Shown here: piece after piece, positions 22,340 through 38,556 of the stretch
Layout: each line of letters opens with the position of its first letter
Position numbering within the stretch: position 1 is the stretch's first letter
Assembly: GCA_021163645.1 (NCBI GenBank)
Contig: JAGGTN010000017.1
Location: 1 to 39,428 of the forward strand
Reading direction: 5' to 3'
DNA from: Candidatus Micrarchaeota archaeon
GTDB lineage: Archaea; Micrarchaeota; Micrarchaeia; Anstonellales; JAGGTN01
DNA: 39,428 nucleotides
The notes under the pieces: generated by a model
Told to the model about the DNA's origin: nothing
Databases searched by the model: none
Seen by the model: only the letters and a program-made list of their open reading frames with translations
Made by a program: the position numbers and the translations under genes

Positions 22340-22599
22340 CGAGCCCGGAGGGATTTTTGGGCCATATTGAGATTGATTCTCAATATGAGAACCCTCAACC
22401 TGCTGGTTTCCTCTTATTCACCACTCTTAATATCATCAGATTAACTTCTTTTGCTCTTTTTACGTTTCTTGTCATTTCTCGTTACATTTCTTCTTGATCC
22501 TTTTTCCGTTCCTCCTTTTTAGTGCAGGTTTTTCTTTCTTGTAAGAAAGAAAAATGTGCTCCGAAGCCAGCCGCGCTATCCAGGTTACGCTACGGGCCC
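22340..22599 (-). tRNA. tRNA-Arg(TCG) with two introns: 153 nt at 37/38 (22408-22560) and 32 nt at 56/57 (22357-22388)
   Basis: Spliced 75-nt cloverleaf GGGCCCG TA GCGT AACCTGGATA GCGC G GCTGG CTTCGGA CCAGC AGGTT GAGGG TTCAAAT CCCTC CGGGCTC G; central helices CTTC/GAGG and GGGT/GCCC with 3-nt bulges at the inferred cut sites. Confidence 0.93.
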
Positions 22600-35542: not shown

Positions 35543-35755
35543 ATTCATAGGTTCACTCATTGAATGGGTCAAATATTTTTAAGAGATACAAATAATCAAA
35601 GTGAAAGATTACAATGATAGGCAGTAAAAAATCATAGTTTGAAAGCAAAGAGCATATTAACAGCTACGATACATAGTTATCATTGTACAGGATAGATAAA
35701 ATAAATAATTGGAATTACAAAGAATAAAAACATCAAAATAAAAAAAGATGATGTA

Positions 35756-36016
35756 AGCCTCAGGAGGGATTTTTGGGCCACTTTTCTTTTTTAGCGCAGG
35801 TTTTTGGATGTCGCCTTCGCCTGCGACACCGAAAGAAAAGTGCGAACCCTTGACCTCGTCCTTTTTTTGAACTTTTCTTTTTTTAGCGCAGGTTTTTGGA
35901 TGTCGCCTTCGCCTGCGACACCGAAAGAAAAGTACATACCAAGGACGCGCTCTACCATTCCAGGCCTTTCTGAAAACTATCTGATTTCAGTCTAAGGCAG
36001 ACTGAGCTACTGAGGC
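35756..36016 (-). tRNA. tRNA-Thr(GGT) with three introns: 42 nt at 17/17a (35958-35999), 74 nt at 37/38 (35863-35936), 71 nt at 56/57 (35773-35843)
   Basis: Spliced 74-nt GCCTCAG TA GCTC AGTCTGGTA GAGC G CGTCC TTGGTAA GGACG AGGTC AAGGG TTCAAAT CCCTC CTGAGGC T; central helices TCAG/CTGG and GGGT/GCCC; the anticodon motif is relaxed. Confidence 0.92.
35780..35933. repeat. Direct repeat of a 62/63-nt structured element (35780-35841 and 35871-35933) forming the bodies of two tRNA-Thr introns
   Basis: Identical except for one T in a homopolymer run. Confidence 0.95.
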
Positions 36017-38300: not shown

Positions 38301-38369
38301 TTTTTAAAACCTTTTGGATATTGTTATAATGTATGGTTTGAAGATTATTTCATAAAATTGAAACGGGTA

Positions 38370-38411
38370 AGCACACTTTTTGCCCGATGAGCAAAAAGTG
38401 CACTAAAAAGG
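38370..38411 (-). repeat. Free-standing REP-like palindrome related to the tRNA-intron elements
   Basis: Minus strand CCTTTTTAGTGCACTTTTTGCTCATCGGGCAAAAAGTGTGCT versus CCTTTTTAGTGCAGGTTTTTCTTTCTTGTAAGAAAGAAAAATGTGCT at 22514-22560 (+). Confidence 0.7.
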
Positions 38412-38477
38412 TAGAGCAAGGATGCTTCATTATGGCAATCAAAGATTGCAACTTGGCGAATTGAATATTTGCCATCC

Positions 38478-38556
38478 TTCAATAGCTATAAAATTCTCCA
38501 TGCTGCTTCATCATATTTGCCGTTCAACATCCTTTCTTCTTCTTTTGTAAGAACAT
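38478..38556 (-). pseudogene. Possible 5' remnant of an aconitase X catalytic subunit
   Basis: GGTG RBS; with frame corrections reads M(F)LTKEEERMLNGKYDEAAWRIL(V)AI. Confidence 0.4.

Follow-up and report, generated by a model that had tools for sequence, protein, structure and literature searches.

How introns arrive in archaeal tRNA genes and how they move between them is still debated, and a 2026 census of Asgard archaea offered no general route (10.64898/2026.10.13.758758). The locus described here raises this question within a single gene: The same 62-base hairpin sits in two of the three introns of a tRNA-Thr(GGT) gene, apparently through very recent copying between introns that were already in place, which would make it a dated example of archaeal tRNA introns acquiring sequence, and with donor and recipient 92 bp apart and no substitutions between them, the edges of the shared tract can be read exactly. 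The host is a Candidatus Micrarchaeota archaeon with a genome of 895 kb in 57 contigs (88.6% complete, around 33% G+C), and the whole stretch of DNA that we analyzed, hereafter the window, is its contig C35 (39,428 nucleotides). The missing share of this genome matters for what follows, as it could hide a third, “master” copy of the hairpin, another Thr(GGT) gene, or genes for a transposase or reverse transcriptase. The original prediction for this locus was a very recent intron copy or conversion event within one gene. Our analysis supports recent copying or conversion, yet with a hairpin body rather than a whole intron as the unit that appears to have moved, and both copies do lie in Thr(GGT), but their body is not private to this gene and belongs to a family whose members also reside in tRNA trailers, in introns of other tRNA genes, and within a dispersed repeat.

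The tRNA-Thr(GGT) gene occupies positions 35756 to 36016 of the reverse strand, with the discriminator T at 35756. Exon 1 (36000–36016) comprises the 5' strands of acceptor and D stem and the start of the D loop and is followed by a D-loop intron of 42 nt (35958–35999); exon 2 (35937–35957) runs from the 3' part of the D loop through position 37 and includes the anticodon GGT. An anticodon-loop intron of 74 nt at 37/38 (35863–35936) separates it from exon 3 (35844–35862, tRNA positions 38–56), and a T-loop intron of 71 nt at 56/57 (35773–35843) precedes exon 4 (35756–35772, positions 57–73). The lengths and coordinates of these latter 2 introns agree with the original prediction, which had not mentioned the third one in the D loop. 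Removal of all 3 (35999–35958, 35936–35863, and 35843–35773) leaves 74 nt that ARAGORN recognizes as tRNA-Thr(ggt) with A49×C65 as the sole mismatch. A run of 7 T residues that begins 10 nt past the tRNA end (35739–35745, same strand) is likely an archaeal terminator. The 4 exons have no other full-length match in the genome, so the gene is present in a single copy; Thr(CGT) and Thr(TGT) exist as separate genes, and only one Thr(GGT) was found in the 88.6% of the genome that is covered. Default ARAGORN and Rfam at gathering thresholds reported no tRNA in the window, and Thr(GGT) became visible only after manual removal of its introns. The window, twin introns included, likewise matched none of the curated covariance models of Rfam at the gathering threshold, those of self-splicing group I/II introns among them, and the single Rfam match between 35600 and 38700 was at chance level (E 0.81). 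Downstream of the tRNA, a segment of 41 nt (35686–35726) is matched with 4 differences and at higher depth by contigs of other organisms in all 4 sequencing runs that we consulted (see below); beyond it, those contigs run into unrelated sequence, which makes this a short shared or repeated segment.

We read splice motifs by the rule that each strand contributes 4 helix nucleotides and then a bulge of 3 nt, with the cut between its second and third bases. On this basis, the T-loop intron has a clean HBh' motif with H GGGT/GCCC, bulges TC↓g and aa↓A (arrows mark the cuts), and an h' of 11 bp (CACTTTTCTTT/AAAGAAAAGTG), and its minimum-energy fold gives precisely this motif; the proposed pairing of its GCCC end with GGGT holds, with AA placed in the bulge. 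The D-loop intron is similarly clean (H TCAG/CTGG; bulges TC↓t and aa↓T; h' GCCTT/AAGGC). For the anticodon intron, we found h CGTCC/GGACG, bulges TA↓t and aa↓A, and an h' of 12 positions with one T×T. The pairing of TCAA with TTGG that had been proposed for this intron fails because it needs bulges of 5 nt, and the canonical 3-4-3 register yields an H of only T-A, T-A, G·A, and G·A. With so weak an H (2 A-U and 2 G·A) and a minimum-energy fold that is not a BHB and prefers a 7-bp helix with a 4×4 loop, we classed this motif as relaxed and counted all 3 introns as BHB introns on these terms.

The genome encodes the matching enzymes, namely a predicted relaxed-motif endonuclease of the epsilon2 type and the ligase RtcB (490 bits). 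The endonuclease is a single frame of 422 amino acids on contig C50 that matches PF01974 at 86 bits and aligns over residues 32–422 with PDB entry 4fz2 (E 5.9e-119), which is the ARMAN-2 epsilon2 enzyme according to PMC3488258; this enzyme type suggests a Micrarchaeota-type organism. It keeps the residues aligned with the catalytic triad Y236, H251, and K282 as well as K161 of the GTYK loop, which the same source credits with the broad specificity of the ARMAN-2 enzyme (PMC3488258). An endonuclease of this type cleaves strict as well as relaxed motifs in vitro (PMC3239211). The 3 introns of Thr(GGT) would be expected to be spliced in vivo, and, as part of the explanation that we favor below, we regard Thr(GGT) as probably a working, single-copy tRNA gene with 3 protein-spliced BHB introns. 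The gene could be impaired, given the weak splice motif in the anticodon loop and the A49×C65 mismatch in the T stem.

A second gene of the window, tRNA-Arg(TCG) (22599–22340, reverse strand), helps to distinguish the parts of such an intron. Its T-loop intron of 32 nt also lies at 56/57 and consists of one initial nucleotide (i1), a hairpin, GCCC, and AA; the last 7 nt (GGCCCAA) and the T arm are identical to those of Thr(GGT), while the hairpin differs. Judged by this comparison, the Arg(TCG) intron combines the same scaffold with another body.

The twin itself consists of a hairpin cassette of 63 nt with a run of 7 A residues in the anticodon intron (35871–35933, reverse strand) and one of 62 nt with a run of 6 A residues in the T-loop intron (35780–35841, reverse strand). 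Gapped alignment of these cores found 0 substitutions and one indel in this homopolymer (A7 versus A6), just as had been claimed from inspection of the sequence. An ungapped repeat search instead delineates two 67-nt copies (35782–35848 and 35874–35940) with 93% identity at a distance of 92 nt, and the longest exact direct repeat between 34001 and 38000 measures 55 nt compared to at most 12 nt in 20 shuffles. The 29 nt between the cores (35870–35842) consist of exon 3 together with the 3' tail of the intron ahead of it and the 2 nt that open the intron behind it. Since the 29 nt that follow copy 1 have no counterpart past copy 2 or ahead of copy 1, a simple tandem duplication is ruled out, as the original prediction had argued from the same unrepeated stretch and the real exon within it. 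Outside of the cores, the twin introns are unrelated over 2–3 nt at their 5' ends and 7–8 nt at their 3' ends, which are the parts that pair with the exons, and the bases at the cassette edges differ as well (GTAC/AGTT versus GCAC/AGTG). The 2 introns thus combine the high identity across non-homologous positions that is expected of a transposed intron (62/63 nt common to 37/38 and 56/57) with differing ends, and the shared unit is not the intron from cut to cut.

Four runs of one hydrothermal-vent study carry 92% of the words sampled from this sequence, and Logan contigs (k = 31) of 3 of them (X1, X2, and X3) cover the twin locus. In each case, they comprise a left flanking piece (35650–35816), a right piece from 35904 onward, a bridge of 97 nt that leads from copy 1 through exon 3 into copy 2 (35812–35908) at a depth of 15–17, and a shared core of 55 nt at about twice that depth (30–40); no joints or variants are listed at this locus in the contigs of these runs. 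The contig breaks are exactly as expected for 2 true copies, which answers the concern that only one might be real, with the scope that X1 to X3 belong to one study, may be the source sample, and therefore give support that is independent of the assembler only. A run from another study (X5) contains just the flanks at a depth of about 3, and its contigs end near the tRNA and are uninformative on the introns. No RNA run was listed among the carriers of this sequence.

The history of the introns was addressed with the Thr(GGT) orthologs of relatives, for which we searched 40 genomes of the same order; 13 loci were tried, of which 8 matched our reading pattern, and the other 5 were left out. Thr(GGT) is intronless in 5 of these 8 orthologs (G032, G040, G022, G015, and G006) and has only an unrelated anticodon intron at 37/38 in the remaining 3 (G019, G011, and G005). 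A T-loop or D-loop intron was found in none of the 8, so both seem to have been gained on the line to the present genome, and the T-loop intron shows the absence from orthologous tRNA genes of relatives that marks a gain. When metagenomes were scanned with exon 3, the matches listed were all bacterial tRNA-Thr genes without introns, and no close relative was among them. A similarity of 83% links the D-loop intron to the one in the D loop of tRNA-Lys(CTT) of one relative (G005, C1:31286–31348), which indicates an intron family common to different families and tRNA types; this tRNA-Lys(CTT) gene also has introns in its anticodon and T loops. Downstream of Thr(GGT) in 4 relatives (G019, G022, G015, and G006), the 3' acceptor segment of the tRNA recurs 2 to 3 times within around 300 nt, and these recurring segments resemble the attachment-site repeats left behind by integrating elements.

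Within the host genome, a search with one core recovered the twin (100% and 98%) along with weaker copies at 73%–75%, and iterated nhmmer extended these to 8 full-length cassette copies with conserved ends (GCAC and a T-run at one side, CCTGCAC-TAAAAG at the other). They fall into 3 subtypes. The twin forms a subtype of its own that is 55%–67% identical to all other copies. A second comprises 3 trailer copies behind Leu, Leu, and Ala(GGC), with 97% identity between a Leu copy and the Ala(GGC) copy (C13:28308–28372 and C44:9029–8965). The third includes the Ala(TGC) trailer and the 37/38 intron of Ser(GGA), which are 95% identical to each other (C3:13657–13716 and C56:12246–12188), as well as a trailer behind another RNA on C11. 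One subtype can therefore serve as both a trailer and the start of an intron, and these 95% (trailer/intron) and 97% (trailer/trailer) pairs suggest that the cassette moves between contexts. Cassette stems co-vary between the subtypes (TGTCGC/GCGACA, TGTCC/GGACA, and TGTTGC/GCAACA). The search for the same core in other tRNA genes that had been proposed thus did uncover the family in further tRNA introns, but the assembled genome has no further copy of the twin subtype, nor any other cassette with its derived features (a T4 run, CCTGCGC, and a long A run).

The motif CCTGC[AG]CTAA occurs 21 times in the genome, and 19 of these occurrences lie inside a cassette or half-cassette. Cassettes stand at the start of the 37/38 introns of Ala(TGC), Asn(GTT), Arg(TCG), Ser(GGA), and Trp(CCA), with a variant in Thr(CGT), and a dispersed repeat of 145 or 260 nt with at least 12 copies in the genome opens with the cassette too. 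One copy of this repeat lies in the window (38352–38494), where it starts with ATAATATTGAAAC.GATAAGC followed by the cassette and has no Rfam match. In this genome, the cassette is multi-copy and lacks terminal inverted repeats apart from its own hairpin stem. Assessed by hand, neither the cassette alone nor the trailer copies together with the tRNA 3' end form a BHB. The T4 run of the twin and its matching 3' tail would complete a perfect inner helix, which looks like an adaptation to intron life, and the T5 to T6 runs of other cassette introns might act as terminators. Readings of the cassette as C/D-box or H/ACA RNA, K-turn, integron attC site, or CRISPR were rejected because the respective boxes or cores are absent and the supposed “spacers” are conserved between loci.

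Several features of other tRNA genes were recorded alongside. The 37/38 intron of Arg(TCG) (gene at 22340–22599, reverse strand) is about 190 nt long, and its cassette copy with a T5 run starts one base past the cut. The intervening sequence of Ala(TGC) (C3:13188–13650) is A-rich, measures around 390 nt, and begins with a cassette that holds a T6 run, and A-rich tracts with repeated half-cassettes (period around 85 nt) lie behind several tRNAs on C3, C13, and C42. Trp(CCA) (C57:3470–3703) has 3 introns as well. ARAGORN with one intron allowed reported 11 tRNA genes in the genome, several of them misidentified, and the Rfam tRNA model matched at 8 places; a strict heuristic based on T arm and acceptor stem detected only 10 tRNA genes, with Thr(GGT) among those missed. 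Most tRNA genes of this genome thus seem to be multiply interrupted.

Searches of this 88.6% complete genome gave 0 matches for a reverse transcriptase (RVT_1) and 0 for the Y1 (HUH) transposase (PF01797) that goes with elements of the IS200/IS605 or REP type, and we treat both absences as provisional. TnpB-like sequences are limited to 4 short fragments. One of them, an open frame of 138 amino acids with a match to a TnpB-type zinc ribbon (C44:17944–18105), adjoins a tRNA gene (C44:17826–17934).

Relatives of the cassette extend far beyond this genome. The 21-mer AAAGAAAACCTGCACTAAAAG, for which we estimate fewer than 1 chance occurrence in 596 Gb, was found in 39 stretches among species-representative genomes. 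Archaeal records account for 32 of these (Micrarchaeia/Micrarchaeota, Nanoarchaeota, Pacearchaeota, Ca. Forterrea, Methanophagales, Methanosarcinales, and others, as named in the record titles), 2 with a full cassette come from rumen bacterial bins, and 5 from Staphylococcus or Bacillaceae lack the 5' half; viral contigs contained no match to the 21-mer. Every full copy reads GCAC, T-run, variable palindrome, A-run, and CCTGCAC-TAAAAG. A total of 46 cassette instances gave 40 distinct cores, of which 32 fold with z < −2. As in the host genome, some copies elsewhere lie directly behind tRNA 3' ends or at the start of 37/38 introns (for example, loci L188, L166, and L200). The distribution is patchy: A cassette 17-mer occurs in 5 of 301 genomes from this phylum, and the sampled genomes of the same order have none. 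No Rfam model matches the cassette, and a literature search by cassette strings and by keyword found nothing relevant in the main texts that it covered.

In an ANME-type order, a CCTGTGC variant lies at the core of a longer element (about 135 nt) that has inverted termini and contains another hairpin. This element is present in 17–27 copies in 4 of the 5 genomes counted and in 2 copies in the fifth (0 for a reversed control pattern), its inverted termini of 16 nt match at 88%, and many copies lie at contig ends. The family profile built from the host genome matched 20 of 20 fetched ANME-type copies (E 4e-5 to 9e-4) and no shuffled sequences, while the twin intron on its own did not match these loci significantly (E 0.31), so that the link runs only through the family profile. 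The ANME-type element comprises 2 subfamilies with different termini (L227–L246; G335, G344, and G329). The left end of the dispersed repeat at 38352–38494 of the window resembles the left terminus of this element.

We consider it probable that the hairpin body was copied very recently, at the DNA level, between the 2 loop sites and into an intron scaffold that already existed. In this explanation, the anticodon and T-loop introns would be built alike from a site-specific scaffold and an interchangeable hairpin body. The 3' nucleotides of the scaffold would pair with the neighboring exon to form a 4-bp central helix flanked by two 3-nt bulges for the endonuclease, and the ends of the body itself (ACTTTTCTTT and AAAGAAAAGT) would provide the inner helix by pairing with each other. 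The body may have been copied between sites 92 bp apart by gene conversion, templated repair, or non-reciprocal recombination, with the twin body as an intron-adapted member of a cassette family that would spread via tRNA trailers, tRNA introns, and the dispersed repeat. After transcription, the epsilon2 endonuclease would cut the bulges, and RtcB would join the exons.

The contrast between the cores and their surroundings is central to this explanation. About 10 differences at the intron ends stand against 0 substitutions in the cores, so neutral divergence cannot explain the ends, and since a single-copy tRNA must be spliced at once and cannot await around 10 compensating changes, the recipient scaffold probably pre-existed. 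The absence of substitutions over 62 nt supports very recent copying, as the original prediction had proposed. We infer the mechanism of copying, its direction, and the mobility of the cassette from patterns in the sequence, and for direction these clues conflict: The T-loop copy keeps the GCAC start of the family, while 37/38 is where this genome usually has its cassette introns.

A closely related history, which we regard as possible though less probable, starts from cassette introns that the 2 sites acquired independently and long ago, with gene conversion homogenizing their cores afterwards, in which case the identity of the cores dates the conversion rather than the gain of any intron. 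Cassette introns at 37/38 are indeed common in this genome, the sister gene Thr(CGT) included, and the edge bases GTAC/AGTT and GCAC/AGTG differ as they would outside of a conversion tract. The lack of a T-loop intron in all 8 order-level orthologs nevertheless implies that this intron is not very old, and homogenization is itself one mechanistic version of the recent body copying that we favor, which the sequence does not separate from it.

Two independent insertions of an active mobile cassette into both loops, from a master copy elsewhere, seem unlikely to us. The family is certainly dispersed, with its 8 full-length copies and the 12 or more copies of the 145/260-nt repeat, further near-identical pairs (97% and 95%) lie at unrelated loci, and related cassettes form the core of the MITE-like element with 17–27 copies in ANME-type genomes. 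However, no other assembled copy shares the derived features of the twin, with the next best at 55%–67%, 2 insertions within one gene of 260 nt would be a striking coincidence, and the 88.6% complete genome gave no match to a Y1 transposase and just the 4 short TnpB-like fragments. We give still less credence to an assembly artefact or a decaying pseudogene: The sequence does come from a metagenome-assembled genome and the gene has a weak anticodon splice motif and a T-stem mismatch, but the contigs of 3 runs contain the bridge along with the core at twice the depth, and this is the sole Thr(GGT) found, next to separate Thr(CGT) and Thr(TGT) genes, with otherwise canonical exons. Least probable of all is classical transposition by an excised, possibly circular intron RNA that was reverse-spliced at a BHB-like site, reverse-transcribed, and recombined into the genome, since, despite the presence of endonuclease and ligase and the “tRNA intron transposition” proposed for Thermoproteales (with an unknown mechanism; PMC4090602, PMC4033280), the genome (88.6% complete) has no RVT_1 match and the shared tract ends 2–3 nt inside the 5' cut and 7–8 nt inside the 3' cut, and a copied tract that excludes the splice ends speaks for copying or conversion of the body and against reinsertion of an excised intron.

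Beyond the event in Thr(GGT), recent body copying could be one episode in a larger process. We tentatively suggest that the twin was left only recently by an archaeal hairpin cassette that spreads horizontally (GCAC + T-run + variable palindrome + A-run + CCTGCAC-TAAAAG). This cassette might be the MITE-like core in ANME-type archaea and a colonizer of tRNA trailers and existing introns in DPANN, where introns may tolerate it because its stem provides their splice motif with an inner helix. If true, archaeal tRNA introns would draw on this cassette as raw material for growth, exchange of bodies, and multiplication, and the long-unexplained “tRNA intron transposition” would have a concrete vector in it.

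MITEs and REP-like repeats are short, dispersed, hairpin-forming elements with conserved ends and a variable palindromic center. The cassette resembles them in being short, dispersed, and hairpin-forming, and its ANME-type relatives reach 17–27 copies with inverted termini; the cassette of the host genome differs from a MITE in that its own hairpin is the sole inverted repeat at its termini and in that no transposase was linked to it. In splicing, the case resembles Ca. Micrarchaeum (ARMAN-2), which has the same enzyme type and in which tRNA genes likewise have T-loop introns or several introns, with motifs both strict and relaxed (PMC3239211 and PMC3488258). The ARMAN-2 introns described there are 13–25 nt long, and the accessible text of these sources describes no shared bodies (PMC3239211, PMC3488258), whereas the introns studied here measure 71–74 nt with a repeated cassette, and standard finders miss most tRNA genes of our genome (ARAGORN reports 11 and Rfam 8). 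Asgard archaea similarly have heavily interrupted tRNA genes and introns at BHB-competent sites, with the arrival of introns in question (10.64898/2026.10.13.758758). This preprint puts copying between tRNA genes at 1.5% of 1,062 at 80% identity and describes copying as present in Thermoproteales but nearly absent from Asgard archaea, with no route via mobile elements (10.64898/2026.10.13.758758). In our genome, unlike there, copying is evident, and the copied body is related to a dispersed element.

The nearest precedent is that of Thermoproteales, where similar introns at different positions of different tRNAs were termed “tRNA intron transposition” (PMC4033280, PMC4090602; originally reported in 2010, Mol Biol Evol 27:2233, as cited in these reviews and in the preprint 10.64898/2026.10.13.758758). 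Both reviews suppose gain at the DNA level by an unknown mechanism (PMC4033280, PMC4090602). The present case instead comes from a Micrarchaeota-type lineage with an epsilon2 endonuclease and points to DNA-level swapping of bodies between pre-existing scaffolds, fed by a dispersed hairpin cassette. What we regard as new compared to known intron transposition is that both copies reside in one gene, that the copied tract is sharply bounded and leaves out the splice-site ends, and that its body is shared with sequences outside of introns, namely tRNA trailers and a dispersed element.
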